Part shown: piece by piece, positions 43,879-61,495 of the stretch
How the letters are laid out: every line of letters begins with the position of its first letter
How positions within the stretch are numbered: the stretch's first letter is position 1
Translations under genes and position numbers: made by a program
From: Thermodesulfobacteriota bacterium
GTDB lineage: Bacteria; Desulfobacterota; QYQD01
NCBI GenBank assembly: GCA_031082315.1
Contig: JAVHLC010000006.1
Span: 16,560 to 80,559, forward strand
Reading direction: 5' to 3'
Length of the DNA stretch: 64,000 nucleotides
Notes under the pieces: generated by a model
Databases searched by the model: none
What the model saw: the letters and a program-made list of their open reading frames with translations, nothing else
What the model was told of the DNA's origin: nothing

Positions 43879-43908
43879 TTGACACAGAAGTTATCGCGGC
43901 CATACAAT
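43879..43908 (+). promoter_or_regulatory. candidate sigma70 promoter for the phosphorelay operon
   Basis: TTGACA, an 18-nt spacer, then TACAAT. About 240 nt upstream of the activator ATG. Confidence 0.4.
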
Positions 43909-44033
43909 ATTTACGCTAAATTTTCTTAAATATTCTGATGAGGTATGCTATAAGAGCAGTATATGGGTGACGGTCGTTTCAGGTGTTTGTTCCGTGGTGT
44001 CAGCCTCTTTACATATTTGGATAGTATTTATCC

Positions 44034-44110
44034 GAAAATCCCCCTGTATCCCCCTTTTCCAAAGGGGGATTTCAATATTTCCCCCCTTTAGCAAAGGGGG
44101 GTGTGGGGGG
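44034..44110. repeat. G/C-run hairpin repeat, copy 2 (two hairpins)
   Basis: ATCCCCCTTT-tcc-AAAGGGGGAT (44048..44070) and CCCCCCTTT-agc-AAAGGGGGG (44081..44101). Confidence 0.85.
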
Positions 44111-44151
44111 ATTTGGCAGTTTCCGGGTGGGAACTAGATAAAGGGATCACG

Positions 44152-46029
44152 ATGCGGAAGCTTTTATTAATCGATGACGAAGAAGGCGTAAGAAACATTT
44201 TAGGACTTTCTTTAAGGAACGACGGGTATAATGTTTTGTTGGCCGGAGATGGTCGGAAGGGCCTGGAGCTGTTGAAGGGCGAGCAGCCGGATATAGTCCT
44301 GACCGATATAAAAATGCCCGGTATGGATGGCCTCGAAGTTTTAAAGAAGGTTAAAGAAATCAGACCGGAAACAGAGGTTATAATTATTACCGGACATGGA
44401 GATATGAGCCTGGCCGTCAAGTCTCTCCAATTGGACGCCTCTGACTTTATAACCAAGCCGGTCAGTGACGAGGCGCTTTCCATTGCCCTGGTCCGGGCTG
44501 AAAACAGACTGGAAGTGAGGGCCAGACTCCGGGAATATACCAATAACATGGAGAATCTGGTCAGGGAAAAGACCGGGGAGCTTGAGAAGACTTACAAAGG
44601 TATAGAGGCATTCTATAACATCTATCAACATATCAGCGACAAGACCTCTTTAAAAGAGGTTCTTGATTTTATAATTGGTAAGGTAGGCGAGTTCATTAAT
44701 TATCAGCACGTACAACCCTTGATCTTTAACGGACGGAAGGATGGTTTTGTTGTTATTGAAGGCTATAAGCCGGCAGGATCTGAAATGGAAACTGCCGGGG
44801 TAATGGAACTGGCCTCTATAGTCGAGCCGATAACGCTCAAAGATACCCAGTTTGATAGCCTGTGCGTTAAAGGATTGGATAGTCTGCCCGGGGTGCTCAT
44901 CCCCATCGCGAAGCATGGCGATGTCATCGGCGGCATTGTGATTTATAGTCGTGAGGCTATTTCAGAGAAAGATGTCAGGTTCGTATATCTTATGGTTTCA
45001 CAGGCAGCGGGGACGGTCCGCCGGATTGTTTTACAGGACGAAAAGCTGCGGGACTTGCATAACAAGATCGCAAGGTTTTCAAGATACGGCGAGCTTATCG
45101 GCAAGGACCATAAGATGCAGCAGATTTATGACCTTATCGGGGACGTGGCGCCCACTAACGTGACTGTTCTCATTCAGGGAGAAAGTGGCACCGGCAAGGA
45201 ATTGGTAGCCAGGGCTATTCACATGAACAGCCTGCGCAAAGATAAACACTTTGTAGCGGTTAACTGTTCTTCTTATCCCCTTACCCTGCTGGAAAGTGAG
45301 CTTTTTGGCCATGAAAGGGGCGCTTTTACCGGCGCCGTGCGCCGGAGGCTGGGATGTTTTGAGCGGGCCCATGGCGGTACGATTTTTCTGGATGAAATAG
45401 GAGAGATCCCGCCGGTCTTTCAGGTCAAACTTTTACGGGTCCTTGAGACCCAGGAATTTCAGAGGCTAGGGGGCGAGGAGGCCATTAAGGTGGATATAAG
45501 GATTGTTGTGGCTACTAACAAGGAACTGCGGAAGGAGGTAGAGAAGGGTGCATTCAGAGAAGACCTCTATTATCGCCTCAATATCATCCCCATAAGTTTG
45601 CCCCCTTTGCGCACTAGAAAGAATGATATTCCCCTCTTGGCCGGGCACTTCCTGGCCAAGTTGAATGCCGGCCAGGGGGAAAAGGTTATGGGTATTACAC
45701 CGGAGGCCATGCGGATATTGATGGACTATCATTGGCCGGGCAATGTCCGGGAACTGGAAAACACCATCGAACACGCCTTTATATTGACCAAAGGAGAGTT
45801 TATCACGGAAGAAAGCCTCCCGGCTTACTTGCGGTTTGGCCTTGATAAAGGGAAAGATGCAAGTTCCTTTGAAGAAAATGAACTGAGATTTCTTACCAGG
45901 ATGTTGGAGCAATACCAGTGGAATAAATTCCAGGTGGCTAAGAAGTTAAATATCAGCCGTAGCACCCTTTATGCCAAGCTCAAAAAATACCATATAGAAT
46001 GTTCCGGATTTACAGTTAACAAAAGTTAA
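44152..46029 (+). CDS. sigma54-dependent response regulator (REC-GAF-like-AAA+-HTH)
   Basis: REC ([24 protein letters not shown]) and AAA+ with intact [24 protein letters not shown] and FREDLYYRL. The Fis-type HTH is [23 protein letters not shown] 44152 was chosen because the longer ORF starts in a G-run repeat. Confidence 0.93.
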
Positions 46030-46108
46030 TGTAGATTGAATAAAAGGCACGAGCGGTCCTTGCCCATCATGGCCCGCCTGTTTTCCAACTGAAAGGCCAT
46101 CGGTTTAT

Positions 46109-48202
46109 ATGTCCTTCTGGGCAATGTTAAGGAACAGACTTATACCGGAAAGCTTAAAGGCCAAGACAATACTTGGCGTCGGGATAATTTTGCTTACAGT
46201 CATGGGCGCTTTCAACTATCTTGCCATAGTTACCCAGGTTAAACGTCTTACGGATGAGAATAGAAAGATGGCCCTGGAGATAAGTAACACCGTCATAAAG
46301 GGGATAGAGTATCCCATGCTTGAGGGCGATATGGATAAAGTCCAGGCCATATTGGAGAGGCTGGGTACCCTGGAAGATTTGAAGGTGGTTCATCTCTGTG
46401 ATGAAAACGGCATTATCAGGCATAACGGGACAGCCCGTTATGATGTCGGGAGGAAGGCCATTTCTCAGGTTACCTTCGAGGCCCTGCGCATCGGCAAGCT
46501 GGCACACGGATTGGAAAAACACCATTTTGATTCTGCTAGTGTAGAGATATTACGTTATGCCATCCCTATTCATAATGAAAAGGCGTGCTATAAGTGCCAT
46601 GGGTCTGAAAAGCCTATCCTGGGGGTGCTATCCGTCGGATTTAGCCGGGACCCGATTCGCAAGATGCTGGCCTCTGTGCGTGGCCAGAATCTATTCTTGG
46701 CCGTAGTCTCGCTGTCGGTGGTTGTTTTTTTCCTGACCTTGTGGCTCAATAGATACATTGTCCGGCCGCTTGCCCGGTTGACCGGGTTAGCTGATGAGAT
46801 CAGCCGGGGCAAATATGTCCCTGGAAGTGGAAAATTCCCGAGGCGGGCCGTTCACTGCTGGGAATTATTGGATTGCAATAAAAAGGATTGTCCCGCATAT
46901 GAACGGAACAGCATACCCTGCTGGTATGTGCCTGATACACTGTGTTTTGGCGAGCCGTCGGGAAAATTTCCTGAAAAGATACAACAGTGCGCAGAATGTC
47001 CTGTTTATAAGCGTCATAAAGGAGATGAAATAGTAAAGCTTCAAGACGCCTTTCGACACATGCTCCATAAGTTGAGCGCTTATGAGAAAGAACTTCGGGT
47101 ATCTGAGGAAAAATACAGACTTTTGTTTAATGCCAATCCTGACCCGATTTTTATTATAGACAGGGATAAGTTCCGGATACTGGACGTTAACGAGAGGACT
47201 TTAGAGCGTTATGGTTACTCAAGGGAAGAATTATTAGAGATGTCTTTTGACAGTCTGGGCCATAAACCAACAGGAGAGGTTATATCTGGGTTCAAAGAGC
47301 TATCGCCCGGGGAATGCGGATTCTTTACGAAGAAAAGGCACACGCATAAAGATGGGCGCCCATTTTATGTGAATATTACCGTTTGTCCGGCAAGATACAT
47401 GGGGATGGACGCATTAATTGTAGCGACGACCGATATTACGGAGAGTGTAGAAAAAGAGGCCCAGCTTATTCAGGCCGGCAAGATGACTACTATTGGTACC
47501 ATGGCCTCCGGCATTGCCCATGAATTGAATCAGCCGTTAAACGTACTCAAGATCGGGAGTGATTTCCTTTTGAAAATGATTAGACGGCGTGAAAAGATTG
47601 ATATCGAAGAGTTGAAGATTGTGGCCGAGGAAATTAGCGGTCATGTGGACCGGGCGTCCGGGATTATTAATCATTTGCGGGAGTTTTCCAGGGCATCTAC
47701 CCCGGTGCGGTCGTTAATGGATATTAATAAACCGATTCAGGACGTGTTTAAGGTATTGGGTCAGCAACTAAGACTGCATCAAGTAGAGATTAAGCTTGAC
47801 CTGGCCAAGGACTTACCTCCAATAATGGCCGACCATAACAGATTGGAACAGGTTTTCATCAACATGGTGACTAATGCGCTGGATGCTATAGATGAGAAGG
47901 TTGAAAAGATGGGGACAGAGGCCGGGGGAATGTCTATAACTATAAAGTCATTCCTGGAAGACGGGCGGGTTGTAGTTGTGGTATCCGATACTGGAATAGG
48001 GATTCCGGATCATATTAAGGACAAGATATTTGAGCCGTTTTTTACCACTAAAGAGGTGGGCAGGGGCACGGGACTGGGCATGTCCATTAGTTATGGAATT
48101 GTCCGTGATTACGGGGGAACCATAGATTTAAAGAGTGAAGCAGGTCTCGGCACAACTTTTGAGTTGAGATTCCCTGTCCATAGTAAGACATCGGAGAATT
48201 AA
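46109..48202 (+). CDS. sensor histidine kinase (periplasmic CXXCH domain, HAMP with Cys-rich insertion, PAS, HisKA, HATPase)
   Basis: TM1 about aa 20-42 and TM2 about aa 195-216. CYKCH at aa 160-164. Seven Cys lie between aa 250 and 297 (HCWELLDCNKKDCP ... IPCW ... LCF ... CAECP). H-box SGIAHELNQP. N, G1 and G2 boxes present (NMVTNALDA, DTGIGI, GRGTGLGMS). Confidence 0.92.
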   Translation: MSFWAMLRNRLIPESLKAKTILGVGIILLTVMGAFNYLAIVTQVKRLTDENRKMALEISNTVIKGIEYPMLEGDMDKVQAILERLGTLEDLKVVHLCDENGIIRHNGTARYDVGRKAISQVTFEALRIGKLAHGLEKHHFDSASVEILRYAIPIHNEKACYKCHGSEKPILGVLSVGFSRDPIRKMLASVRGQNLFLAVVSLSVVVFFLTLWLNRYIVRPLARLTGLADEISRGKYVPGSGKFPRRAVHCWELLDCNKKDCPAYERNSIPCWYVPDTLCFGEPSGKFPEKIQQCAECPVYKRHKGDEIVKLQDAFRHMLHKLSAYEKELRVSEEKYRLLFNANPDPIFIIDRDKFRILDVNERTLERYGYSREELLEMSFDSLGHKPTGEVISGFKELSPGECGFFTKKRHTHKDGRPFYVNITVCPARYMGMDALIVATTDITESVEKEAQLIQAGKMTTIGTMASGIAHELNQPLNVLKIGSDFLLKMIRRREKIDIEELKIVAEEISGHVDRASGIINHLREFSRASTPVRSLMDINKPIQDVFKVLGQQLRLHQVEIKLDLAKDLPPIMADHNRLEQVFINMVTNALDAIDEKVEKMGTEAGGMSITIKSFLEDGRVVVVVSDTGIGIPDHIKDKIFEPFFTTKEVGRGTGLGMSISYGIVRDYGGTIDLKSEAGLGTTFELRFPVHSKTSEN

Positions 48203-48203
48203 G

Positions 48204-49724
48204 GTGTCAACACTGCTGCTGATTGATGACGAAGAAGGCATAAGGAAGGTTTTATCCCTTTCATTAAGGAAAGACGGGTATCAGGTGCTAACGGCGGAAA
48301 ATGGCGGGAAAGCTCTGGAAGCGTTCCGTCGTAATCTCCCGCGGGTTGTTTTGACCGATATAAAGATGCCCGGCATGGATGGCATTGAGGTCCTGAAAAT
48401 AATCAAGCAGATCGAACCTGATACGGAAGTGATAGTTATTACGGGACATGGTGAGCTGGAATTAGCCATCCAGGCCCTCCAGCTTGGGGCTTCTGATTTT
48501 ATCACCAAACCGGTAAGCGATGAGGCCCTTTCCATTGCCCTTAAAAGGGCCGAGCAGAAGCTGGAGATGAAACGGAGGCTCAAAGAGTACACCCATGACC
48601 TGGAAAGTATGGTAAAAGCGGCCACAGATGAGTTGAGGCGGAGATATGAATTTGAGGATAAGCTTATCCAGGCATCTATTGATGGCATAGTGGCTACCAA
48701 CGAGAAGGGCAGTGTACTAATTTTCAACGAGGGGGCCTCAAGAATATTCGGTTATTCCCGCCTGGAGGCCATAAGGGGAATGGATATAGAGGACCTTTAT
48801 CCGGCAGAAATCGCTCGGGAGATCAAAGAAGGATTATATGGCAGAAAATACGGAGAAGAACATATTTTCAGGTGGAAAGAAATAAATGTCAAGGCTAAAG
48901 ATGGTCAGGAGATGCCGGTAAGGTTTTCCGGCGCTATACTGTATGAAAAAGAGGAAGTAGTGGGCAGCGTCGGCTTTTTACAGGATTTAAAAGAGATTAA
49001 ACGGTTGGAGCAGGACCTGATCGAGTCGGAAAGGCTGGCTGCCATAGGCCAGACCGTGGCCGGCCTGGCCCATTGCGTTAAGAATATCTTATACGGGCTT
49101 AAGGGGGGGGTTTATGTGGTAAATACCGCCTTTAAGAGTAATAACCCTGAACAGCTAAAGACCGGCTGGGATATGGTTAACCGTAATATCGGCAAGGTCT
49201 CTGATCTGGTTATGGATTTGCTCAATTATTCCAAAGAACGCGAACCCGACTACCAGAGATGTTTTCTAAATGCCATTGCCGGTGAAGTCTGTGACCTTAT
49301 GGAGCTAGCGGCTCAAGAGGTCGGCGTAAAAATAATTCGTAATTTTGACCAGGCTATTGGAGAGGTAGCTTTAGATCCAAAGGGAATACACCGCTGTGTG
49401 CTCAATTTGGTCTCCAACGCCATTGACGCCTGTCATTTCGACCTTGACAGGAAAAAGGATTGCGTTGTAGAAGTAAAGACAGCCCTTGAGGATAAGGATA
49501 CAGTGGTGATTGAGGTCTCTGACAATGGCTGTGGTATGGATGAGGAGGTCAAGAACAAGATTTTTACCTCTTTTTTTAGTACCAAGAGTGGCGCAGGCAC
49601 CGGATTAGGACTGCTTGTGACACAGAAGATAATCAAGGAACACGGTGGAACCATCACTGTGGAATCGGAGCCTGGGAAAGGGTCAACTTTTGCCATTCGC
49701 CTTCCATTGAGAGAAAACGTCTGA
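48204..49724 (+). CDS. hybrid response regulator-histidine kinase (REC-PAS-HisKA-HATPase)
   Basis: GTG start 1 nt after the preceding stop. The REC is closely paralogous to that of 44152..46029. PAS domain (IDGIVATNEKGSVLIFNEGASRIFGY), H-box AGLAHCVKN, and ATPase boxes (NLVSNAIDA, DNGCGM, GTGLGL). Confidence 0.9.
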   Translation: MSTLLLIDDEEGIRKVLSLSLRKDGYQVLTAENGGKALEAFRRNLPRVVLTDIKMPGMDGIEVLKIIKQIEPDTEVIVITGHGELELAIQALQLGASDFITKPVSDEALSIALKRAEQKLEMKRRLKEYTHDLESMVKAATDELRRRYEFEDKLIQASIDGIVATNEKGSVLIFNEGASRIFGYSRLEAIRGMDIEDLYPAEIAREIKEGLYGRKYGEEHIFRWKEINVKAKDGQEMPVRFSGAILYEKEEVVGSVGFLQDLKEIKRLEQDLIESERLAAIGQTVAGLAHCVKNILYGLKGGVYVVNTAFKSNNPEQLKTGWDMVNRNIGKVSDLVMDLLNYSKEREPDYQRCFLNAIAGEVCDLMELAAQEVGVKIIRNFDQAIGEVALDPKGIHRCVLNLVSNAIDACHFDLDRKKDCVVEVKTALEDKDTVVIEVSDNGCGMDEEVKNKIFTSFFSTKSGAGTGLGLLVTQKIIKEHGGTITVESEPGKGSTFAIRLPLRENV

Positions 49725-49774
49725 TGTATGAAGGCCGGAGGATAGAGTCTTTAAAAAACACAGGAGGATATATT

Positions 49775-50167
49775 ATGGGGAAAAAGGTGCTTGTTGTAGA
49801 TGATGACGCTGATGTGAGGACATTTGTTACCACTGTTGTTGAGACAAACGGCTATACGCCTATTGTGGCGACAAATGGTGAAGAGGCGATGGCCAAGGTA
49901 AGGGGAGATAAACCGGATTTGATAGTTTTGGATGTCCTAATGCCGCGGGAGAGCGGGATCAGGATGTACCGTGAATTGAAAACAGACGATGCGTTAAAGA
50001 CCATTCCGGTAGTCATCTTATCCGGGATTGCCAAACGGACCTTCCTCCGCTCTCAGGCCGCGCTGACAGAGTTCGGTGGACAGGCCGTGCCTGAGCCGGT
50101 GGCCTATCTGGAAAAGCCGGCAGAGCCGGAAGAACTGGCGGGGACAATAAAAAAGATATTAGGCTAG
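49775..50167 (+). CDS. single-domain response regulator (CheY-like)
   Basis: AGGAGG 6-7 nt upstream of the ATG. KVLVVDDDADVR, LIVLDVLMP and YLEKP, with an insertion before the KP motif. Confidence 0.9.
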   Translation: MGKKVLVVDDDADVRTFVTTVVETNGYTPIVATNGEEAMAKVRGDKPDLIVLDVLMPRESGIRMYRELKTDDALKTIPVVILSGIAKRTFLRSQAALTEFGGQAVPEPVAYLEKPAEPEELAGTIKKILG

Positions 50168-50188
50168 AAGGTAATTATTTTTTTAGAG

Positions 50189-50228
50189 GGGCCCGGGCAC
50201 TCAATCATAGAGTATCCGGGCCCTTTTA
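50189..50228. terminator. possible bidirectional terminator between the response regulator and usp
   Basis: GGGCCCGG ... CCGGGCCC stem (19-nt loop), flanked by a T-run on each side. Confidence 0.45.
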
Positions 50229-50233
50229 TGTTA

Positions 50234-51100: not shown

Positions 51101-51377
51101 ATTCACACATCCTCCCCTGTAAAGATAAAAAACGTTTTGCATTTTGGCCTACAAACAAGCCGCTTGTCAAGATTTATGTTTATGTTTTCTGAAAATATTT
51201 TCGTGCACTGCGTAACTCGATGGTTCGCACCTTGATTTTGATGAATTCGTAAAAATCGTAATTCCCCTCGCCCGGCGAGGGAGAGGGAGTTTACGAGACC
51301 TTTTACGAGACCATCATTTTTGGTATTGAGATGGCTCTCTTGGATAAAAGATACATACTGTACAATAAAAACACAGA

Positions 51378-51402
51378 TTACTGTACGATATTTATACAGT
51401 AA
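51378..51402. promoter_or_regulatory. candidate upstream activator site (perfect inverted repeat)
   Basis: TTACTGTA-N9-TACAGTAA. Related half sites are ACTGTACA at 51357..51364 and TTGTACAC near 51459. The site is about 170-220 bp upstream of the sigma54 promoter candidate. Confidence 0.4.
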
Positions 51403-51566
51403 TTTAGTATTTAAAATACAAGGATTATCCAAATAAAGAAAATTATGGTGTATTAAAATTGTACACTAATGTCCGAAGGGTTTATTAGTTCTCAGCATCA
51501 CAATTAACGGATTTTTGTTAAGAATAACAGCAGGATGAAATAATGGGCTGAGTTGTATCCTGGTTT

Positions 51567-51582
51567 AGGCATAGAAGTTGCT
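51567..51582 (+). promoter_or_regulatory. candidate sigma54 (-24/-12) promoter for the usp-mrp transcription unit
   Basis: aGGCATagaagTTGCT against consensus TGGCACG-N4-TTGCW. GG and GC have the correct 12-nt register. About 150 nt upstream of GTG 51729. Confidence 0.5.
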
Positions 51583-51728
51583 GTATTTAACAACGCGAGA
51601 TTAAGCTTAAATTATTTTTATCGGCAGATAAGGGGCCAAACTTAAATATTTACTTTGGCCGGGGCGGGGTATAACTGGATGATGTGGCGCTTAGGGTTAT
51701 GCTATGAGCCAGAATTCGGAGGATTAAT

Positions 51729-52508: not shown

Positions 52509-52523
52509 ATTTAACCACAGACA

Positions 52524-52593: not shown

Positions 52594-53313
52594 ATGGAAG
52601 TGACGGTCTTAATACAGGCTACAGACGAGGCCTTTAAGATCATAGAAGAGGCCAGAAATCGTGCCTTGGACGTACTCAATACCTCGGTTAGATTTACGGC
52701 CGAGGCCAAGGTCCTTGAGGAGAAGAAGGTACAGGACATCTTTAAGGGGGCGGAGCGGACAAAATCCGAGGTCCTGAGCTTTCTGGCCACCTTTGCCTTG
52801 TTGTTCTTTCCCTTCTGGATGCCGCTTTCCGGGTTCTTTGATGTCTTCCACCTCAGCATCGGGGTGGGTTGCTGTGCCTTGGTGGCCTATATATCCCACG
52901 ACCTCCTCTTTGTTAATGTCCGGGTGGGGGATATGCGCACGATAGTAAAGAGGTTTTTCGCCTATATCCCCTGGTTGCTATACCAGATCTATCTGGCCAG
53001 CGTCCACGTAATCAAGATTGTTTTGAAGCCCAAGATGCCTATAGATCCCCGGATAATAAGGTTTAAGACAAAATTGCAAACCGATATCTCGATGGTAACC
53101 TTTGCCAACTCCATAACCCTTACCCCGGGTACTATCACCGTAGAGATAAAGGACGGCGAGTACTACGTGCATGCTATCGATGAAGAGGTGGCCTATGACC
53201 TTCTCTACGGCGGTGAGATGGAGGACAGGGTGGCCCATGTCTATATGGAGGCGGAGCATGTCTATGTCCAGGATGTATTGGATGTGGCCCGTATATATGG
53301 GGCTTTGAGATAA
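52594..53313 (+). CDS. mrpE: Mrp/Mnh antiporter subunit E homologue with N-terminal extension
   Basis: MnhE core: IPWLLYQIYLASVHVIKIVLKP ... VTFANSITLTPGTITVEI. It is preceded by a ~60-aa charged helix and extra TM segments not usual for MrpE. Confidence 0.85.
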   Translation: MEVTVLIQATDEAFKIIEEARNRALDVLNTSVRFTAEAKVLEEKKVQDIFKGAERTKSEVLSFLATFALLFFPFWMPLSGFFDVFHLSIGVGCCALVAYISHDLLFVNVRVGDMRTIVKRFFAYIPWLLYQIYLASVHVIKIVLKPKMPIDPRIIRFKTKLQTDISMVTFANSITLTPGTITVEIKDGEYYVHAIDEEVAYDLLYGGEMEDRVAHVYMEAEHVYVQDVLDVARIYGALR

Positions 53314-53353: not shown

Positions 53354-53806
53354 ATGATAATAACCTACGAGGATATAATTATAAGGACCCTTACCCGGGT
53401 GCTGGCGCCGTTTTTACAGCTCTATGCCCTCTATGTTATTGCCCATGGGCACTACAGTCCGGGCGGCGGATTCCAGGGAGGCGTTATACTCGCGGCCAGT
53501 TTTATCCTGATGGTCATTTCTTTCGGGCTGGATATGGCCAGGAGGCGGTTGTCTGAAAAGGTCGATATCATATTCCTCTGTCTCGGACTTTTAATTTATT
53601 CAGGGACCGGGGCCTTATGCCTGGCCCTGGGCGGAAATTTTCTGGATTATAGAGAGCTGACAAAAATCCTGCCCGTAACCATAGCGAGAGCCAGGGCCCT
53701 CGGTATTCTGTTTGTGGAGACAGGCGTCGGCTTTGGCGTCATGGCCGTTATGACCTCTTTGGTCTATGATATTTCCACCGGCGGGTTGCCGCCTGAACGC
53801 AGGTAA
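53354..53806 (+). CDS. MnhB-domain membrane protein (C-terminal half of MrpB, MbhF-like)
   Basis: Signature AHGHYSPGGGFQGGVILAA followed by TM helices. Confidence 0.85.
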   Translation: MIITYEDIIIRTLTRVLAPFLQLYALYVIAHGHYSPGGGFQGGVILAASFILMVISFGLDMARRRLSEKVDIIFLCLGLLIYSGTGALCLALGGNFLDYRELTKILPVTIARARALGILFVETGVGFGVMAVMTSLVYDISTGGLPPERR

Positions 53807-53867
53807 TAACAGGTAATAAATAGAACACCGGGAAGAGCAAGGGCGGAAAGGCACAGGGAAGGGCATC

Positions 53868-54824: not shown

Positions 54825-54863
54825 GGGTAAATACAAAAACGTAATGTTCTACGGGGTGTCACT

Positions 54864-55139
54864 ATGATCGATATGCAGCGATTCTTTATGGGCGTGAGCA
54901 TTGCATTATTGTTTCTGGCATTCCTTTGCCTCTACCGGGCTATCTGGGGGCCCCTTATAACGAACCGGATAGTAGGCGTGGGGGCCATCGGAACCAAGAC
55001 CCTGATTGTTTTGCTCCTTATGGGTCTCATATACGACCGGCTGGATATGTTCGTGGATATCAGTATTGTTTATGCGCTTCTGAACTTTATCGGCACCCTG
55101 GCTGCGTCCAAGTATCTTGAAATGATGGGAGAGGTTTGA
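54864..55139 (+). CDS. mrpF: Mrp/Mnh antiporter subunit F
   Basis: Three-TM ~90-aa protein. LYRAIWGPLITNRIVGVGAIGTKT and LLNFIGTLAASKYLE are typical of MnhF/PhaF. Confidence 0.85.
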   Translation: MIDMQRFFMGVSIALLFLAFLCLYRAIWGPLITNRIVGVGAIGTKTLIVLLLMGLIYDRLDMFVDISIVYALLNFIGTLAASKYLEMMGEV

Positions 55140-55141
55140 GA

Positions 55142-55504
55142 ATGGATACCATGACCATAGGATCGATACTGACCGCGATTTTTCTTTTGTTGGGTTTGCT
55201 TTTCTTCACCGGGGGCACCATCGGGCTCTTACGCCTGCCTGACTTCTATTGCCGTATGCATGCCACGGGCAAGAGTGATACCCTGGCAGTTCTCTTATGC
55301 CTCGTCGGTCTAGCCATCTACAATGCTTTTGCGGGCAACTTTGCGCTACCCTATATCCTGGTGAGCATAAAGATTATCTTTATCGCTATCTTCTGGTTTC
55401 TGGCCGGCCCCGTATCCACCCATGCCCTATATAGAGCCGCCTTTAGATGTGGTGTCAAGCCCTGGACCTTGGATAATCAGTTTAAGGAGGTAGATAAAGA
55501 ATGA
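55142..55504 (+). CDS. mrpG: Mrp/Mnh antiporter subunit G
   Basis: GTIGLLRLPDFYCRMHATGKSDTL is the MnhG signature. ATG 55142 is preferred over the TTG at 55136 that overlaps the mrpF stop. Confidence 0.88.
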   Translation: MDTMTIGSILTAIFLLLGLLFFTGGTIGLLRLPDFYCRMHATGKSDTLAVLLCLVGLAIYNAFAGNFALPYILVSIKIIFIAIFWFLAGPVSTHALYRAAFRCGVKPWTLDNQFKEVDKE

Positions 55505-55746
55505 TAGTCCCACTGGATATTATACTGCTTGTCTTTGTGGTAATAACCGGTATTGCGGCCCTACAGATAAAAGATCTTTTGGGCGCTACGATTATCCTCG
55601 GGTCCTTCAGCTTCTTCATGTGCCTTATTTACACGGAGATGGGGGCGGTGGATGTGGCCTTTACCGAGGCCTGCGTGGGGGCTGGTGTGGGCACCGTCCT
55701 GTTTATCGCCGCAGTCCATAAGACGAAAAGGAGGGCGAAAGATTGA
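55501..55746 (+). CDS. DUF4040/MbhD-like membrane subunit
   Basis: 81 aa with two to three TM segments. The pattern AALQIKDLLGATIILGSFSFFMCLIYTEMGAVDVAFTEACVGAG matches the MrpA C-terminal/MbhD module. Shares a 4-nt overlap with each neighbour. Confidence 0.8.
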   Translation: MIVPLDIILLVFVVITGIAALQIKDLLGATIILGSFSFFMCLIYTEMGAVDVAFTEACVGAGVGTVLFIAAVHKTKRRAKD

Positions 55747-56036
55747 AAGCGTTTGCTTTGCTCACGGTAATCATAACCGGTGTCATGCTCGTATACGGGG
55801 CAGAGGATTTTCCCAGGTGGGGCGACCCGGATCAGCCGGGCAGCGTGCACGTTTCGCCCCGTTATACCCAGGGTGCATACATAGAGACGGGGACTCCGAA
55901 TATAGTTACGACGGTGGTTGCTGATTACCGGGGCTATGACACCATGGGGGAGACCACGGTTATCTATACGGCCGGGATGGCCTGTATCCTGATGTTACGG
56001 AAGAAAAAGAGGGGCGGGGGAGAAAACAATGCTTGA
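55743..56036 (+). CDS. MnhB N-terminal-type subunit (MbhE-like)
   Basis: NIVTTVVADYRGYDTMGETTV is the DYRGxDT(L/M)GE signature of the first half of MrpB. TTG start overlaps the preceding stop. Confidence 0.8.
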   Translation: MKAFALLTVIITGVMLVYGAEDFPRWGDPDQPGSVHVSPRYTQGAYIETGTPNIVTTVVADYRGYDTMGETTVIYTAGMACILMLRKKKRGGGENNA

Positions 56037-56415
56037 GTACATCATCAGTAAATATAACTACTGGGTCTATATCTTTCTGATGATGCTTGGCCTCTACGGC
56101 ATGATCGGGAAGAGGAATCTGGTAAAAAAACTTATAGGTATGAATATCTTTCAGGTGGCGATAATCCTCTTTTATATTTCTATCGGGTCCAAGGTGGGGG
56201 GCGACATCCCTATACTGACCGCGGAGGACCTCCACGGTATGGCCGATCCCGGTAAGTACCTGAACCCAATACCCCACGTCCTGATGCTTACCGCCATCGT
56301 GGTGGGTATCGCCACAACCGGAGTGGCCCTGGCCATAATAATCATGATTTATAACCGGTATAAGACCCTGGCTGAGGATGAGATATTAGAGATTCGTAAG
56401 AAAACTGGAGCCTGA
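56029..56415 (+). CDS. mrpC: Mrp/Mnh antiporter subunit C (NuoK-like)
   Basis: Three-TM NuoK-like protein (GLYGMIGKRNLVKKLIGMNIFQVAIILF, VLMLTAIVVGIATTGVALA). Confidence 0.88.
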   Translation: MLEYIISKYNYWVYIFLMMLGLYGMIGKRNLVKKLIGMNIFQVAIILFYISIGSKVGGDIPILTAEDLHGMADPGKYLNPIPHVLMLTAIVVGIATTGVALAIIIMIYNRYKTLAEDEILEIRKKTGA

Positions 56416-56416
56416 G

Positions 56417-57922
56417 ATGAGCTACGGATACGAACAATGCATCGTATTAATTGTAACCGTCCCGCTAATCACCTCTTTTCTTGTGGTGCTACTAGGGTGG
56501 TTTAAGAGGTGGCTATGTTACCCGTTAGTCCTGGCTGCCTTAGGGGTATCTTTTCTATGCTCCCTGGGCATTTTGGACCTGGTTATGGAGAGAGGGACGA
56601 TTCACTACTGGCAAGGGGGCTGGGAGCCGCCCTGGGGCATCGAGTACGTGGTAGATCACCTCAACGCCTTTATGCTGGTGATGCTGACGTTCATTGGCCT
56701 TATGGTAGCCATCTACTCAAAAAAGAGTATCGAGCGGGAAATTCCTGAAAAGTTAGTCCCATACTACAGTATCTTCCTGCTCATGGTGACCGGCCTCATT
56801 GGCATCACGGTCACCGGAGACCTCTTTAACGCCTTTGTCTTTCTGGAGATTGCATCCCTCACTGCCTATGCCCTCATAGCCGTGGGTGAAGACGGGGCGC
56901 CTATGGCGGCATTCAACTATGTAATCATGGGCACCATAGGGGCCTGTTTTTACTATCTGGGGATCGGCTACGTGTACATTGCGACCGGTTCGCTGAACAT
57001 GGCCGATTTGTCCCAGCTATTACCCGCCCTATATCATAACAAGGCGGTGCTGGTCGGCTTTGCCTTGTTTACGGTGGGAATCGCTGTCAAAATGGGTCTC
57101 TTCCCGTTGCATGTGTGGCTTCCGGATGCATATACCTATGCGCCTTCTGCCACCAGCGCGGTTATCGCCCCCCTGTTCACCAAGGTTATGGCCTATCTCA
57201 TGGTCCGGATTTTCTTTACGTTGTTTAAACCGCACTTTTCCATAGACCTGATCCCAATAACTCAGATCCTGACCTGGGTGGCGGCTGGCGGCATTATCGC
57301 CGGTTCGATCCTGGCCATCGCCCAGACCGATTTGAAAAGGATGCTGGCCTATTCTTCCATAGCGAACATCGGGTATATCGTGCTGGGTATCGGGCTGGCC
57401 AACCGGATGGGGCTTACCGGCGGCTTACTGCACATTTTGAACCATGCCTTTATGAAAGGGACCCTGTTCCTGGTGGCCGGCGGAATAATGTACAAGATGG
57501 GTATGCGGGATATTACGCAGTTTCGGGGACTGCATAAAAAGATGCCCTTTACCATGGCTGCCTTTACCATCGCCGCCCTCTCCATGATAGGCATACCGCC
57601 TACTGGTGGGTTCTTTAGCAAGTTTTATCTCGTCTTAGGCGCGATCGATGCAAGACAGTGGGCCTTTATAGTGGTTCTGTTGGCTAGCAGTCTGTTAAAC
57701 GCCGTTTACTTCTTTCGGGTTATAGAGAATATCTACCTGGAACCACCGGTGACTGCCTATGCCACCGACGGCGGGACACACGAGGAGATAAAGCGGGATG
57801 AGCTTCCTTTAAGTATGCTTGTCCCCATCCTTATTATGGCGGCTGGAGTAGTCTTGTTAGGTATCTTTAATGAACGCATTATCGCCTTTATCATTCGCTT
57901 TGCGGTTCCGGCAAGCTTTTAA
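56417..57922 (+). CDS. mrpD: MrpD/NuoN-M-type antiporter-like subunit (copy 1)
   Basis: Proton_antipo_M pattern: FVFLEIASLTAYAL, LHVWLPDAYTYAPSATSA, KRMLAYSSIANIGY, HILNHAFMKGTLFL. Confidence 0.92.
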   Translation: MSYGYEQCIVLIVTVPLITSFLVVLLGWFKRWLCYPLVLAALGVSFLCSLGILDLVMERGTIHYWQGGWEPPWGIEYVVDHLNAFMLVMLTFIGLMVAIYSKKSIEREIPEKLVPYYSIFLLMVTGLIGITVTGDLFNAFVFLEIASLTAYALIAVGEDGAPMAAFNYVIMGTIGACFYYLGIGYVYIATGSLNMADLSQLLPALYHNKAVLVGFALFTVGIAVKMGLFPLHVWLPDAYTYAPSATSAVIAPLFTKVMAYLMVRIFFTLFKPHFSIDLIPITQILTWVAAGGIIAGSILAIAQTDLKRMLAYSSIANIGYIVLGIGLANRMGLTGGLLHILNHAFMKGTLFLVAGGIMYKMGMRDITQFRGLHKKMPFTMAAFTIAALSMIGIPPTGGFFSKFYLVLGAIDARQWAFIVVLLASSLLNAVYFFRVIENIYLEPPVTAYATDGGTHEEIKRDELPLSMLVPILIMAAGVVLLGIFNERIIAFIIRFAVPASF

Positions 57923-57937
57923 CCGGGAGGAGACAGG

Positions 57938-59431
57938 ATGGAAATCGTATATTCAATAAAGCCGCTACTTGCTGTTCTGGTATCACTTATTGCTGCCCCG
58001 CTGATCCTTCTTACGGGAGAAAAGCACAAGAATGTCCGGGAATTTTGGACGATTCTGGCGGCACTCATCAAATTCTCCGTGGTGGTCTCCATGATTCCAC
58101 TGATTACCGATGGAAAGATCATAGAGTACACAATTCTACCCATAATTCCCGGTGTCCCCTTGCAGCTAAGAGTGGAGCCCTTCGGGATGATTTTTGCCCT
58201 TCTGTCTTCTACCCTGTGGATTGCTACTTCCTTCTATTCCATAGGCTACATGCGGGGGCTGAATGAGCACGCCCAGACGCGTTACTTCTTTGGCTTTGCC
58301 ATGTGCATGTCTGCCGCTATTGGTATTGCGTTTTCCGCCAATCTGTTGACTCTGTTTGTCTTCTACGAGATTCTTACGATCTCCACCTGGCCACTGGTGG
58401 TTCATAAAGAGACCCAGGAGGCCGTCATGGGCGGTCGAAAGTACCTCTTCTATACCCTGACCGCCGGCACTCTGATACTGTTTTCAACAGCGATGCTCTA
58501 CAACCTGACCGGGACCCTGGATTTTCGGGCGGGCGGCTTTCTGGCCGGACATGGGTCACCTGCCATACAGACTTTACTCCTGATAACCCTTATTCTCGGG
58601 TTCGGGGTGAAGGGCGGGATCATGCCTATGCATGAATGGCTGCCCACAGCCATGGTCGCCCCCACACCGGTCAGCGCCCTCCTCCATGCCGTGGCCGTGG
58701 TGAAAGCCGGTGTCTTTGGATGTCTCCGGGTTATCCTTTTTATCTTTGGCCCCAAGCTCCTCGGTGATCTGGGATTGTGGTTGCCCCTGGCCTATTTTGT
58801 TTCCTTCACCATACTTGCTGCCGGATTGTTGGCTTTAGGGCAGGATCATCTCAAGCGGCGACTGGCATTTTCGACGATAAACTGCCTCTCTATTATGGTG
58901 TTGGGAGCCGCTTTATTATCGAAGAGCAGTATTACCGGTGGGATACTGCATATGGCTTTCCATGGTTTTATGAAAATCACCCTCTTTTTCTGTGCCGGGG
59001 CCATATATGTCAAAACCCATAAGGAATACGTTAGTCAACTGGATGGCCTGGGCAGGCAGATGCCGCTTACCTTCGCTGCCTTTACTATAGGCGCTATGGG
59101 CCTCGCAGGGGTTCCGCCGGTAAATGGCTTCATAAGTAAATGGTACCTTTGTCTAGGGGCCATGGAGTCCAAAGAAATAGTCTTTCTCTTTATACTGCTG
59201 ACCAGTGCCTTGCTGGACGTGGCCTTCTTTTTCCCCATTATTTATAAGGCCTTCTTCAAGAAGCCCTTAGATGATGTCAAACCGCATTTTGACGAGGCTC
59301 CGATGTTTATGGTCGTCCCGCTTGTGGTTACCGCCGTCATGGCGGTGATCCTGGGGGTTTATCCGGATGCCTTTTTCAGATTCTTTAACATAACTGCCTT
59401 GGCTGTGAATAACATTCTGGGGGTAAGTTAA
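57938..59431 (+). CDS. mrpD: MrpD/NuoN-M-type antiporter-like subunit (copy 2)
   Basis: FVFYEILTISTWPLV, MHEWLPTAMVAPTPVSALLHA, KRRLAFSTINCLS and HMAFHGFMKITLFF. Confidence 0.92.
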   Translation: MEIVYSIKPLLAVLVSLIAAPLILLTGEKHKNVREFWTILAALIKFSVVVSMIPLITDGKIIEYTILPIIPGVPLQLRVEPFGMIFALLSSTLWIATSFYSIGYMRGLNEHAQTRYFFGFAMCMSAAIGIAFSANLLTLFVFYEILTISTWPLVVHKETQEAVMGGRKYLFYTLTAGTLILFSTAMLYNLTGTLDFRAGGFLAGHGSPAIQTLLLITLILGFGVKGGIMPMHEWLPTAMVAPTPVSALLHAVAVVKAGVFGCLRVILFIFGPKLLGDLGLWLPLAYFVSFTILAAGLLALGQDHLKRRLAFSTINCLSIMVLGAALLSKSSITGGILHMAFHGFMKITLFFCAGAIYVKTHKEYVSQLDGLGRQMPLTFAAFTIGAMGLAGVPPVNGFISKWYLCLGAMESKEIVFLFILLTSALLDVAFFFPIIYKAFFKKPLDDVKPHFDEAPMFMVVPLVVTAVMAVILGVYPDAFFRFFNITALAVNNILGVS

Positions 59432-59435
59432 TATT

Positions 59436-59645
59436 ATGAAGACCTTCAAGTACATTTTTTTCGGCTCGATTGCCCTGAGCTGTCTGCTGGGGCTGGTTTT
59501 TACCAATCCACATCCCCATTTCTGGTGGCAAAAGATACCGGTGTTTGATGCGGTCTTTGGATTCATCGGATGCATCGTCATCATCGTTGTCTCCAAGGCG
59601 CTCGGTCATGGCTGGCTGCAGAAGAAGGAGGGTTATTATGATTGA
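59436..59645 (+). CDS. small two-TM membrane protein of unknown function
   Basis: 69-aa ORF packed between two antiporter-like genes (4-nt gap upstream, 8-nt overlap downstream). Two hydrophobic segments. I recognise no family. Confidence 0.5.
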   Translation: MKTFKYIFFGSIALSCLLGLVFTNPHPHFWWQKIPVFDAVFGFIGCIVIIVVSKALGHGWLQKKEGYYD

Positions 59646-61425
59646 TATAGTTCCTCCAGCCTTCATATATATCGTCGGGGCGTTCCTCATTCCCCTGTTA
59701 GGGAACAGGCTCAGGCTTTTGAAACAGGCCTTTTTGCTCCTGATCCCGGCCATTGCATTCTGGGATCTTCTCAACATGCCCCAGGGCACCTACTGGATTT
59801 ATCAATTCCTGGGATATGAGCTTATCTTAGGCCGCGTTGACAAACTGAGCATGGTATTCGGCTACATCTTTGTCATCATGTCATTCCTGGGGATGGTCTA
59901 TGCGATCCACATAAAAGAAGACGGGCAGCACGTGGCGGCATTTCTGTATATGGGGAGTACGCTTGGGGTGGTCTTTACCGGAGATCTTTTCACCCTGTTC
60001 GTTTTCTGGGAGATTATGGCCGGGGCCTCTGTTTTTCTGGTCTGGTACAGGCGGGAACAGGCGGCCCTCGACGCCGGATTCAGATACGTTTTTGTGCACC
60101 TGGCTGGCGGTGCGATTCTGTTGGCCGGTATTGTCATGCACGTGGTCGAGACGGGATCAACGGCCTTTTCACTGCTGAAGTCCGATACACTGGCTTCAAA
60201 TTTCATCCTTTTCGGTTTCTTGCTCAATGCCGCGGTGCCTCCACTCCATGCCTGGCTGGCGGATGCCTATCCGGAGGGGACAGTGACCGGCAGCGTATTC
60301 ATGACTGCCTTTACCACGAAAAGCGCCGTATACGTACTGGCGCGAGGATTTGCCGGAACCGAGCTTCTGATATGGCTTGGGGCGATCATGGCCCTCTATG
60401 GTGTGGTTTACGCGGTTCTCGAGAATGATATCCGAAGGCTTCTTGCCTACCACATTATCAGTCAGGTCGGATATATGGTCTGTGGCGTCGGTTTGGGAAG
60501 TGAATTAGCCATAAATGGTGCAAGTGCCCATGCCTTCTGTCACATTCTTTACAAGGCATTACTTTTCATGGGTACCGGCGCGGTGATTTACGTGACGGGA
60601 CGGCGTAAGATGACCGAATTACAGGGTAGAAACCTGTACCGGATGATGCCCATTACCGTCACACTCTATATGATTGGCGCCTTTTCCATCTCGGCCGTAC
60701 CCTTATTCAATGGTTTTGTCAGCAAGACCATGGTCATAGCCGCTGCCGGCATGCTGAACCGACCGGCTATCGAACTTATGCTTCACCTTGCCTCTATAGG
60801 GACATTCCTCCATACGGGTCTGAAGCTTCCCTGGGGTACCTGGTTTGGCAAGCCTACCGGGCAGGAGGACAAAATAGAGGCTAAAGAACCGCCACTGAAC
60901 ATGCTGGTAGCGATGGGGCTGACGGCATTTTTATGCATACTCACTGGCGTCTATCCCCAGGTACTGTATAATATCCTTCCTTATCCGGTTGATTTCCATC
61001 CTTATACTGCGGATAAGGTCGTAGCCGCGATGCAGATGCTGTTACTGACAGCCGCTGCTTTCTGGCTCTACATAGACAAGCTGGGGGGAGAACCAACGGT
61101 CAGCATGGATACGGATTGGTTTTATAGAATGTTTGGCCGTGGCGTTGCGTGGTTCTGTGAAAAGCCGCTGAACGCATTACGCTCAGGAGTGCAAGCTTTT
61201 CTTACCAGTGATGTGAAGGGTTTCGCACTTCTTGCCAAAAACCCGTATCGAGCGGGCCGACTTATTGCTTCCTACTTCCGTGGCGACCCCAAGGATAAAT
61301 ATCAGGCGGTCCGAAACGAGCCATATAATGTGAATACTTACAGGATACCTATCGGCGTATCGGCCGGTGTGGCCACCATATTCCTGTTTCTCCTTACCCT
61401 GATCTATTTCGCCGTCGGGGGATGA
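59638..61425 (+). CDS. MrpA/NuoL-type antiporter-like subunit (copy 3) with C-terminal amphipathic helix plus terminal TM
   Basis: AAGGAGGG 6 nt upstream of ATG 59638 (the ORF-track start 59545 overlaps the small ORF). FVFWEIMAGASVFLV, LHAWLADAYPEGTVTGSVF, RRLLAYHIISQVGYM. The tail DTDWFYRMFGRGVAWFCEKPLNALRSGVQAFL ... IPIGVSAGVATIFLFLLTLIYFAV resembles a NuoL-type lateral helix with its anchor. Confidence 0.9.
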   Translation: MIDIVPPAFIYIVGAFLIPLLGNRLRLLKQAFLLLIPAIAFWDLLNMPQGTYWIYQFLGYELILGRVDKLSMVFGYIFVIMSFLGMVYAIHIKEDGQHVAAFLYMGSTLGVVFTGDLFTLFVFWEIMAGASVFLVWYRREQAALDAGFRYVFVHLAGGAILLAGIVMHVVETGSTAFSLLKSDTLASNFILFGFLLNAAVPPLHAWLADAYPEGTVTGSVFMTAFTTKSAVYVLARGFAGTELLIWLGAIMALYGVVYAVLENDIRRLLAYHIISQVGYMVCGVGLGSELAINGASAHAFCHILYKALLFMGTGAVIYVTGRRKMTELQGRNLYRMMPITVTLYMIGAFSISAVPLFNGFVSKTMVIAAAGMLNRPAIELMLHLASIGTFLHTGLKLPWGTWFGKPTGQEDKIEAKEPPLNMLVAMGLTAFLCILTGVYPQVLYNILPYPVDFHPYTADKVVAAMQMLLLTAAAFWLYIDKLGGEPTVSMDTDWFYRMFGRGVAWFCEKPLNALRSGVQAFLTSDVKGFALLAKNPYRAGRLIASYFRGDPKDKYQAVRNEPYNVNTYRIPIGVSAGVATIFLFLLTLIYFAVGG

Positions 61426-61460
61426 GATTGGCCTTTTGTGAGGGGGCTGAGAATCATTCA

Positions 61461-61495
61461 TTTTCATCCGGAAAGCCTGGCTTTCCGGATGAAAA
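61461..61495. terminator. bidirectional terminator hairpin between the mrpA-like gene and the DUF1992 gene
   Basis: Perfect 15-bp stem TTTTCATCCGGAAAG-cctgg-CTTTCCGGATGAAAA. The A/T runs are part of the stem on both strands. Member of the CCGGAAA hairpin family. Confidence 0.7.

Follow-up and report, generated by a model that had tools for sequence, protein, structure and literature searches.

We analysed a 64,000-nucleotide stretch of DNA from a Thermodesulfobacteriota bacterium (contig JAVHLC010000006.1), here called the window, and within it a block at positions 43879-61497 that places genes for a putative phosphorelay and a sigma54-dependent activator next to two universal stress proteins (USPs) and an Mrp-type antiporter cluster. 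Embedded among the Mrp genes is a degenerate, apparently dead paralogue of the activator, itself one of the bacterial enhancer-binding proteins (bEBPs). The parts were identified from a listing of the open reading frames (ORFs) combined with Pfam and NCBIfam scans, and the block was compared with loci fetched from relatives or metagenomes (L numbers) and with protein clusters at 90% identity (P numbers). Judged by its recurrence in these loci, it forms a conserved module of signalling and effector genes in uncultured Thermodesulfobacteriota.

A first-pass annotation of the same DNA had described a sigma54 response regulator, a sensor kinase with a periplasmic CXXCH motif and a cytoplasmic Cys-rich insert, a hybrid kinase with a receiver (REC), a PAS domain and a kinase module (REC-PAS-kinase) whose receiver is closely paralogous to that of the activator, a CheY-like regulator, two divergent tandem-USP genes around an AT-rich region of about 630 bp with a sigma54 promoter candidate and TGTAC-type inverted repeats, and a 12-gene Mrp-type cluster with three antiporter-like subunits, interrupted by a dead activator paralogue. 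Pfam and NCBIfam found each of these parts where it had been placed (Table 1). The block had been credited with 19 genes; we count 18, 12 of them in the Mrp stretch. It had also been bounded by a promoter candidate and a strong terminator: the promoter-like sequence and the terminal hairpin stood, but the hairpin has a weak U-tract and the terminator scan gave no call. The hairpin is nevertheless likely to be a bidirectional terminator of the Mrp unit.

Table 1. Features of the block, in window coordinates
Feature	Position	Strand	Details
Sigma70-like promoter candidate, upstream of signalling operon	43879..43908	+	TTGACA-18-TACAAT; 11/12 matches
Activator, 625 aa	44152..46029	+	REC (Asp52) - coiled-coil linker - divergent GAF - sigma54 AAA+ - HTH_8
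Sensor kinase HK1, 697 aa	46109..48202	+	transmembrane helix (TM) - periplasmic Mcp40H-20/Tll0287-like domain - TM - two-CW - PAS - HisKA - HATPase
Hybrid kinase HK2, 506 aa	48204..49724	+	N-terminal REC - PAS - dimerization and phosphotransfer domain (H-box HCVKNIL) - HATPase
CheY-like single-domain receiver, 130 aa	49772..50167	+	
Tandem USP 1, 288 aa	50234..51100	-	PF00582
Sigma70-like promoter candidate for usp1	51141..51170	-	TTGACA-18-CAAAAT
Three enhancer (upstream activating sequence, UAS) candidates	51359-51375, 51382-51398, 51449-51465		TGTAC-N7-GTACA
Predicted sigma54 -24/-12 promoter	51567..51582	+	AGGCATAGAAGTTGCT, GG-N10-GC; 147 nt before usp2; predicted start about 51592-51594
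5'-untranslated region (UTR) stem-loop	51634..51660	+	GGCCAAA...TTTGGCC; in predicted usp2 5' UTR; no Rfam match
Tandem USP 2, 259 aa	51729..52508	+	PF00582; GTG start
MrpE/MnhE	52594..53313	+	conserved cytoplasmic N-terminal extension of ~60 aa
MrpB	53354..53806	+	MnhB domain; NCBIfam NF009162 121.1 vs cutoff 120
Dead bEBP paralogue, 318 aa	53868..54824	+	AAA+ - lid - HTH_8; between mrpB and mrpF
MrpF, MrpG, MbhD, MbhE (C-terminal pieces of split MrpA), NuoK-like MrpC	54864..56415	+	
Two antiporter-like subunits, 501 and 497 aa	56417..59431	+	
69-aa two-TM protein	59436..59645	+	no family match; also in L001, L002, L003, L008, L092, L093
Third antiporter-like subunit, 595 aa	59638..61425	+	NCBIfam NF009310 'Na(+)/H(+) antiporter subunit D' 707.6 vs cutoff 564
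Perfect 17-bp hairpin between convergent genes	61460..61496		dG about -25 to -28 kcal/mol; z = -4.1

A dead activator paralogue inside the Mrp cluster

The embedded paralogue is 55% identical to the AAA+ and helix-turn-helix (HTH) part of the activator. It keeps the AAA+ sigma54-interaction fold (PF00158, E=2e-53) and an intact C-terminal Fis-type HTH (PF02954, E=4e-11), whereas its catalytic and sigma54-contact motifs are degenerate, in keeping with the dead paralogue of the first-pass annotation. Walker A reads GEDGTEKE and so departs from GxxxxGK, the glycine before Lys40 being replaced by Glu39; Walker B is FLNDI where the canonical sequence is FLDEI, the arginine finger is FNEE instead of FRED, and RISKGA stands in place of GAFTGA. 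All of the corresponding motifs are intact in the 625-aa activator, including FREDLYYRL, together with its regulatory domains and HTH. Catalytic death of the paralogue is thus supported by its motifs. In P-loop NTPases, a side chain at the affected glycine, for which Ras G15 is the classic case, blocks phosphate binding, and by analogy the Gly-to-Glu change would do the same here.

The same changes mark a family. Among the best 93 clusters examined, 89 carry Walker A as GE-x-GTEK; the other four, and those from rank 94 onward, are canonical. LDEI of Walker B is replaced by LNDI, LNEI, LSEI, LDRI or LNNI, and is degenerate in all clusters but P0057, which looks like an intermediate. The arginine finger is altered in most members, with Asn at the first Arg of FREDLxxRL (in the P0020 group the motif was unreadable by regular expression); the second Arg is kept in the clade of the window and lost in the largest clade. 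The GAFTGA loop is unrecognisable in the window's clade, shortened in some members (P0015, P0018) and present as GAF[E/D/N]GA in other clades. HTH residues W283, R296, T298, L299, Y300, K302 and Y306 are invariant.

The possibility that the gene is a pseudogene or a recent duplicate was rejected given this family-wide conservation and a dN/dS of 0.05 relative to L001, which points to strong purifying selection and is as low as that of any neighbour. An AlphaFold2 model from 20 family members (predicted local distance difference test score, pLDDT, 80) superposes on ZraR, NtrC1, NtrX, FleQ and PspF, with TM-scores up to 0.9 among ZraR, NtrC1 and FleQ. In a neighbour-joining tree without support values, the dead proteins group as a single clade whose sister clade holds the cognate activators, and the internal branching of the two is broadly parallel; this fits one ancient duplication followed by co-inheritance. 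WNK[L/F]QVAK and SRSTLY[A/S]K are common to the HTHs of activators and dead proteins, the counterparts in other bEBPs being KQAAK/KKTAR and Y[E/D/N]; this is compatible with both proteins binding the same DNA target. No NCBIfam model matched the dead protein at cutoff, and no description of its family was found in the literature searched. FleQ-like c-di-GMP binding was set aside on the motif following Walker A in FleQ, which we take to be KExxxRN, and not on a computed result; the dead clade has KEWVAEAIH at this position.

Promoter elements and conservation of the module

The usp1-usp2 intergenic region (628 bp, 37% G+C) holds the cis-elements of the block. The predicted sigma54 promoter has the GG-N10-GC spacing, lies between genes, points toward usp2 and is preceded by UAS candidates 100-210 bp upstream; on these features it is a promoter of sigma54 type with predicted RpoN dependence. 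The strict pattern NGGCA[CT]-N5-TTGCN has one match in 64 kb, AGGCATAGAAGTTGCT itself, and AGGCA[CT]-N5-TTGC[TA] occurs at the homologous place in seven loci (L001, L002, L004, L006, L105, L162, L166), with variant elements (T/CGGCA[CT]-N5-TTGC) in L003, L008, L090, L092 and L173. The promoter is convincing because it is conserved in relatives, not because of the number of matches: with up to two mismatches, the sigma54 consensus matches 19 times against 27.7 expected, which by count is not significant. The UAS palindromes span 17 bp with the consensus TGT[A/C]C-N7-G[T/G]ACA, two of them 23 bp apart centre to centre and the third 67 bp further on, and this three-site layout, at about -190, -167 and -100/-120 from the GG, recurs in the same seven loci. 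When one mismatch was allowed, TGTAC-N7-GTACA matched just twice in 64 kb, both times at intergenic UAS sites 67 bp apart.

In all loci with a recognised sigma54 promoter, the dead gene lies downstream of it, and in L008 the promoter immediately precedes the gene. Neither promoter nor UAS is present in L094 and L095, which carry no bEBPs. Promoter and UAS are conserved across loci whose dead proteins are only 55% identical. Four close relatives share about 80% identity over the intergenic region, whereas dS between genes flanking it in the window and in L001 ranges from 0.24 to >1.9, near saturation in many. On the other strand, the TTGACA box ATTGTCAAG was found in 5/5 intergenic regions compared and probably serves usp1.

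In L001, one pair of the 5'-UTR stem-loop differs by a compensatory change (G-C to A-U) and another has gone from C-G to U-G. The much longer UTRs of L004 and L006 (250-340 nt) contain several GC-rich hairpins of the type CCCG[TC]ACTTGAT[AG]CGGG. An insertion of ~66 bp at about 51240-51317, between the usp1 promoter and the enhancer sites, is absent from L001, L105 and L166; it holds a GC-rich hairpin (CCCTCGCCCGGCGAGGG) and two copies of a direct repeat (TTTACGAGACC) and looks like a small mobile or REP-like element. L092 contains another perfect copy of TGTACGGTTTCTGTACA, placed some 170 bp upstream of a sigma54-like TGGCATCAATATTGCT element (L092:1525-1710), in a spacer beside an Rnf/RseC/USP operon and antisense to the annotated genes, which may mark a further target of the same activator or an unannotated gene.

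Loci of dead-protein homologues were fetched at 85%, 60-55% and 57% identity (L001-L009, L090-L092), and nine more came from a metagenome scan for the Walker A signature. Beyond the window there are at least 17 dead-family loci (55-97% identity), at least nine of them from metagenomes (L098, L105, L124, L131, L143, L151, L162, L166, L173). The proposed linkage held in this comparison: 17 of the 17 other listed loci carry Mrp genes beside the dead gene, on either side as far as the contig extends, USP genes are also present wherever the contig reaches that far, and the majority have the activator, REC-PAS-kinase and CheY as well. By their source labels, these loci come from Thermodesulfobacteriota, Desulfobacterales, Desulfofervidaceae and one metagenome-assembled genome (MAG) labelled Anaerolineae. 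A search of genome contigs with the generic peptide patterns SFE[ED]NEKR and P[SP]LR[QE]RK[DE]D returned, among the matches listed, ordinary bEBPs at no more than 50% identity.

The full gene order of the window, from the activator through the three antiporter-like genes, is found in L001, L002, L004/5 and L006/7. Synteny is kept at 55-60% protein identity, and rearrangements still hold the parts together: L008/9 and L090/91 have co-directional versions, one with a cytoplasmic GAF-PAS kinase, and L003, from a Desulfofervidaceae MAG, has no kinases nearby and a 920-aa one-component PAS-GAF-GAF-AAA+-HTH activator directly upstream. Rnf adjoins the module in L004 and L006, and in L092 lies on one side with REC-PAS-kinase and CheY on the other. 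The dead gene itself is found in the mrpB/mrpF gap, before mrpE or before an extra usp, always inside the cluster, which argues for functional rather than merely inherited linkage. The sensory input is also exchanged, the haem-c/two-CW kinase being conserved in one branch, and others having a GAF-PAS kinase, a dCache-GAF-PAS kinase or a one-component PAS-GAF activator.

Loci with the same MnhE subtype add to this picture. L094 and L095 have USPs, REC-PAS-kinase and CheY and no bEBP of either kind, and L093 combines this Mrp subtype, USPs, REC-PAS-kinase and CheY with a different PAS-bEBP and no dead paralogue. Since L094 and L095 have the core without activator, dead paralogue or sigma54 promoter, the sigma54 layer is an add-on to an older core, which the first-pass annotation had not anticipated. 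By this distribution, the oldest core is the sensor kinase, REC-PAS-kinase, CheY, USPs and Mrp, with the activator and dead paralogue added in one branch.

The rest of the window holds core genes (ATP synthase alpha and beta, PBP2, RNase R, PEP synthase). Given these genes and an even composition, a genomic island was rejected, and the block is taken as chromosomal backbone. No known RNA family was detected by an Rfam scan of 43000-62500. The starts of usp1, CheY and the third antiporter-like gene (51100, 49772, 59638) lie downstream of the longest-ORF starts. The close homologues are labelled as Thermodesulfobacteriota MAGs, and the window sequence is present in landfill, coal, sediment and groundwater DNA metagenomes.

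Sensory, relay and transport genes

The signalling genes adjacent to the usp genes encode a REC-GAF-AAA+-HTH activator, a haem-c/two-CW kinase (HK1), a REC-PAS-kinase (HK2) and a CheY-like receiver. The central ~165 residues of the activator have no Pfam match in the window protein itself, and a two-sequence AlphaFold model of this region was unusable (pLDDT 34; a homologue search with the region gave two proteins). A profile of seven orthologues, however, matched PDB 3ci6 (E=2e-6) and the GAF domain of the Aquifex bEBP Nlh1 (4g3k), and Pfam GAF_2 matches the region in 6/7 orthologues, identifying it as a divergent GAF.

The CYKCH motif of HK1 (residue 160) falls between its two TM helices (about 16-44 and 190-218) and is therefore predicted to be periplasmic. 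The loop scores 27.6 bits against PF21563 (Mcp40H-20 sensor), borderline at a cutoff of 27; this family includes the haem-c PAS-like sensor domains GSU0582 and GSU0935 (PMC3460858, PMC8396549). By location, CXXCH motif and family match, the domain is a haem-c PAS-like sensor with predicted haem attachment. For the Cys-rich insert on the cytoplasmic side, NCBIfam NF045718 ('two-CW domain') scores above cutoff; a literature search found no publications on this domain. CXXCH and both CW motifs are kept in 6/6 orthologous kinases. A small multihaem cytochrome c gene (Cytochrome_C554/C7 matches) stands directly before the haem-sensor kinase in L004:1510-1965, L006:1343-1774 and L093:17767-18201, in L004 and L006 between activator and kinase, with none at the window position; this arrangement fits an electron-transfer or redox input to the kinase.

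As expected of a phosphorelay, HK1 has HisKA/HATPase, HK2 has an H-box with HATPase, and each of the three receivers has the Asp pocket (DD/D/T(S)/K). In the window, HK2 and the activator share 63% identity across 149 aa of REC plus linker, and within each locus the figure is 62-73%, helix alpha1 included. The CheY-like receiver is 21-25% identical to the other two and has an 11-residue insertion before the conserved Lys. Given these identities, the activator and HK2 receivers probably take phosphate from the same donor in a branched relay; a single kinase feeding all three receivers would go beyond present support, the CheY-like receiver being so divergent.

The closest precedent for the relay logic is NmpRSTU of Myxococcus xanthus, in which a sensor kinase silences a hybrid kinase that is the phosphodonor of the activator (PMC11841059). 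Both systems bring together a haem-dependent sensor kinase, an N-terminal-REC hybrid kinase, a receiver-only protein and an NtrC-like sigma54 activator, and the Nmp activator binds tandem inverted repeats upstream of a sigma54 promoter, a layout seen here in the DNA sequence alone. The Nmp sensor is a cytoplasmic protoglobin, in contrast to the predicted periplasmic c-type haem PAS-like domain with two-CW of HK1; the activator here has an extra GAF and a receiver closely paralogous to that of the hybrid kinase, its predicted target is an Mrp operon, and a dead activator paralogue, present here, did not come up for Nmp in the parts of that report consulted. USPs are reportedly part of the NmpR regulon. 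They are discussed at length, with 12 mentions, in the text on NmpRSTU (PMC11841059).

USP1 has the ATP motif G-2x-G-9x-GS in its C-terminal domain alone (residues 257-271), and USP2 has no ATP-binding motif. The Mrp cluster matches MNHE, MnhB, MrpF_PhaF, PhaG_MnhG, MbhD, MbhE, Oxidored_q2 and, three times, Proton_antipo_M in Pfam. The solved structures nearest to the first antiporter-like subunit (56417-57922) are MbsH, MbhH and MrpD, and the nearest solved relatives of the first and third together, the two that were searched, are MbsH, MbhH, MrpD and MrpA. By these homologies, the cluster is an Mrp (CPA3) system with counterparts of MrpA (split), B, C, D, E, F and G and a predicted transport function. 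Pfam scans found no hydrogenase, NuoB/D/H/I-like or MbhM-like gene in the cluster.

Group 3 Mrp systems have a similarly irregular gene order and a duplicated MrpD (cyanobacterial mrpCD1D2EFGAB, Microbacterium mrpFGBCDDAE; PMC5703873), and, like these and the MBH/MBS membrane arms (PDB 6cfw, 6u8y), the cluster has seven subunit types, a split MrpA and extra antiporter-like subunits. It differs in having three antiporter-like subunits, the 69-aa two-TM protein and the 60-aa MrpE extension, in the order E-B-(regulator)-F-G-A'-A''-C-D-D-x-D, in the lack of a hydrogenase or redox module, and in its tight linkage to USPs and a phosphorelay. The MrpE extension (residues 1-60, 52594-52770) is covered by all 120 best homologues, and its start resembles the beta1-alpha1 element of a USP (VTVLIQATDEAFKIIEEARNRAL). 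Among NCBIfam models the best is NF009295 (368 positions), which aligns only from position 161. None of these 120 homologues is a USP-MrpE fusion of the kind that would serve as Rosetta-stone evidence, an idea that is thereby neither supported nor excluded. The locus is a mosaic, in that most genes are 77-96% identical to those of L001 and the three antiporter-like subunits (56417-61425 vs L001 12540-17617) only 62%, 50% and 47%. Relatives have two versions of this distal module, D(~497)-small ORF-D(~590) and MrpA-like D(~676)-D(~501) without the small ORF.

Models for the relay and the dead paralogue

We favour, with moderate confidence, a model in which the block is a conserved sigma54-controlled signalling and effector module limited by its own dead paralogue. 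HK1 would sense the envelope by way of its periplasmic c-type haem, the cue being redox state or a gas ligand, would read a cytoplasmic signal with its Cys-rich two-CW and PAS domains, and would phosphorylate in parallel the two near-identical receivers of the activator and of HK2. HK2 would in turn control the CheY-like protein, and this branch probably acts post-transcriptionally on the USP/Mrp system; since it persists in relatives without the sigma54 layer, it appears to be older and not transcriptional. The phosphorylated activator would assemble on the enhancer sites and open the sigma54 promoter, which with its three UAS precedes usp2, mrpE, mrpB, the dead bEBP gene, mrpF, mrpG, mbhD, mbhE, mrpC, the three antiporter-like genes and the small TM gene. 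Expression would supply a USP together with a Group-3-type Mrp Na+(K+)/H+ antiporter that has three proton-path subunits, and the balance of ions and energy would thereby be adjusted under stress. The dead paralogue, made from the same transcript and with the same HTH type, would be unable to bind or hydrolyse ATP or to contact sigma54, and would occupy the enhancer sites or poison mixed rings with the activator, so that the operon limits its own induction. A decoy with negative feedback is its most likely role by this reasoning. The one-regulon interpretation of the first-pass annotation is supported in part by the conserved block, by the promoter and UAS upstream of usp and mrp and by the identical HTH residues; the shared HTH, on which it had relied, is a modest argument.

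Several observations weigh against this model. The HTH argument is modest because the HTH_8 recognition helix is conserved across all bEBPs. Walker A keeps its Lys, GTEK also occurs in a few otherwise canonical-looking bEBPs (L122, L160, L168), and P0057 (locus L090) retains the DE of Walker B; complete loss of nucleotide binding by the dead paralogue is likely rather than proven. The tree has no support values, and the metagenome census, made with a back-translated Walker A signature, is a sample whose counts are lower bounds. No rpoN was seen in the part of the window ORFs that was scanned. No RNA-seq or metatranscriptome run was found to contain the window sequence, which came up in DNA metagenomes only; the transcription units, the start site and the dependence on RpoN are accordingly predictions. 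A redox signal is our inference from the sensor domains, and 'redox' applies at most to the haem-c kinase branch since sensor input differs between lineages. Finally, the observations fit a positive action of the dead protein as well as a negative one.

The last point bears on a rather unlikely alternative, in which the dead protein is an obligatory or stimulatory partner, a nucleotide-independent scaffold that nucleates or stabilises mixed rings and gives positive feedback. The dead and activator clades are co-inherited sisters, there are three enhancer sites, other GTEK-type proteins adjoin live bEBPs and rpoN (L100, L134, L136, L157), suggesting a general live/dead partnership, and the paralogous pair HrpR/HrpS is co-dependent (PMC3105312). 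However, HrpR and HrpS both keep their catalytic motifs, whereas a subunit without the Walker A Gly, Walker B and the trans-acting arginine would disable two ATP sites each time it is inserted, and proteins of the window's clade have a degenerate or shortened L1 loop. The dead protein could also act apart from the sigma54 promoter, as a stand-alone activator or repressor of sigma70 type at the divergent usp1 or at unlinked genes, which we judge improbable. TyrR, NtrX and the NtrC proteins of Rhodobacter and Caulobacter are atypical members of the EBP family without sigma54 contact, which have lost GAFTGA and keep the AAA+ fold of bEBP type and the Fis-type HTH. VpsR, a further case, has lost the ATP-hydrolysis residues as well and works at a sigma70 promoter (PMC6158489). 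NtrX ranks with the best structural matches of our model, and the conserved TTGACA box of usp1 lies in the same intergenic region. Yet some 190-300 bp separate the enhancer sites from the usp1 promoter, the dead gene is kept in L003, L008 and L090, which have no divergent usp, and the dead family is paired with a sigma54 promoter and UAS, usually also with a cognate activator. Atypical EBPs are moreover full-length, with their own sensory domains, act alone at sigma70 promoters and mostly have a normal Walker A, whereas the dead protein is a bare AAA+/HTH without a sensory domain, has an invariant Gly-to-Glu P-loop and is encoded in the target operon of its live paralogue.

For the relay, a serial wiring like that described for NmpRSTU is a serious alternative to the branched one, and we regard it as possible if clearly the lesser candidate. 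HK1 would phosphorylate the HK2 receiver (and the CheY-like protein as a sink) and switch HK2 off, with unphosphorylated HK2 as the kinase of the activator, so that induction would follow disappearance of the HK1 signal. The cast matches NmpU, NmpS, NmpT and NmpR, for which there is biochemical support in Myxococcus (PMC11841059), and HK2 and CheY are the most constantly linked signalling genes. Against this, the activator and HK2 receivers are near-identical in helix alpha1, so that a kinase recognising one should recognise the other, which fits a shared donor; the L008 sensor kinase is directly upstream of the activator, and the L003 activator is a one-component sensor with no kinase nearby. 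That the block is a chance neighbourhood of common gene types (two-component system, USP, Mrp) with a decaying duplicate regulator is hardly credible: each part is a very common family and the sigma54 consensus match alone is not significant, but co-occurrence in 17 other listed loci despite rearrangements, the conserved promoter and UAS, the dN/dS of 0.05 and the invariant GTEK in 89 clusters already contradict it.

Each part of the favoured model belongs to a known kind, with NmpRSTU as the likeness for the relay, Group 3 for the Mrp cluster and precedents for an EBP without GAFTGA. An inhibitor that limits the output of its activator, sometimes from the activated regulon, is also familiar from PspA/PspF, FleN/FleQ (PMC8528422) and NifL/NifA, although those inhibitors are unrelated in fold to their activators and the candidate here is a degenerate activator copy. 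In the literature searched, we found no description of a bare AAA+/HTH pseudo-bEBP with an invariant Gly-to-Glu P-loop inside the operon of its live sister, nor of a fixed association of such an activator/dead pair with USPs and an Mrp complex.

GE-x-GTEK also occurs in at least four further bEBP-like families outside the Mrp-linked one (metagenome loci L096-L175). One comprises ~930-aa proteins with GHAKGALSFA where GAFTGA is expected (at least 17 loci), a second is an AAA+ fused to HisKA (~520 aa; L101:4585-8974, beside a live response-regulator bEBP), a third is ~390 aa and from soil, and the fourth consists of ~400-455-aa REC-AAA+ proteins without HTH in the order rpoN, canonical response-regulator bEBP, small ORF, GTEK protein (L100:2429-6800, L134:5824-10278, L136:2000-6543, L157:107-4641). 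The position of such families next to live response-regulator bEBPs suggests that live/dead pairing may be general. Tentatively, GTEK proteins could form a widespread and so far unrecognised class of nucleotide-blind pseudo-bEBPs, the Mrp-embedded protein being one of its families. Paired with live bEBPs, they would adjust sigma54 responses in gain or duration, either by forming mixed rings or by competing for the enhancer; the P-loop glutamate would occupy or mimic the phosphate site, so that the subunit would be permanently competent for assembly and catalytically inert.

Known control of sigma54 activators consists of sensory domains and unrelated anti-activators; if the favoured model is true, self-limiting control by a pseudo-enzyme paralogue encoded in the activated operon would be a further principle. 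The GTEK variant of Walker A would provide a simple marker for pseudo-bEBPs that are now annotated as ordinary 'sigma-54 dependent transcriptional regulators'. In anaerobes living near the thermodynamic limit, the block also puts a phosphorelay and USPs in physical linkage with an Mrp complex that has three proton-path subunits. Little is understood of how Mrp is regulated or of what USPs do at membrane transporters, and the block offers a defined system, with its cis-elements, in which both may be approached.

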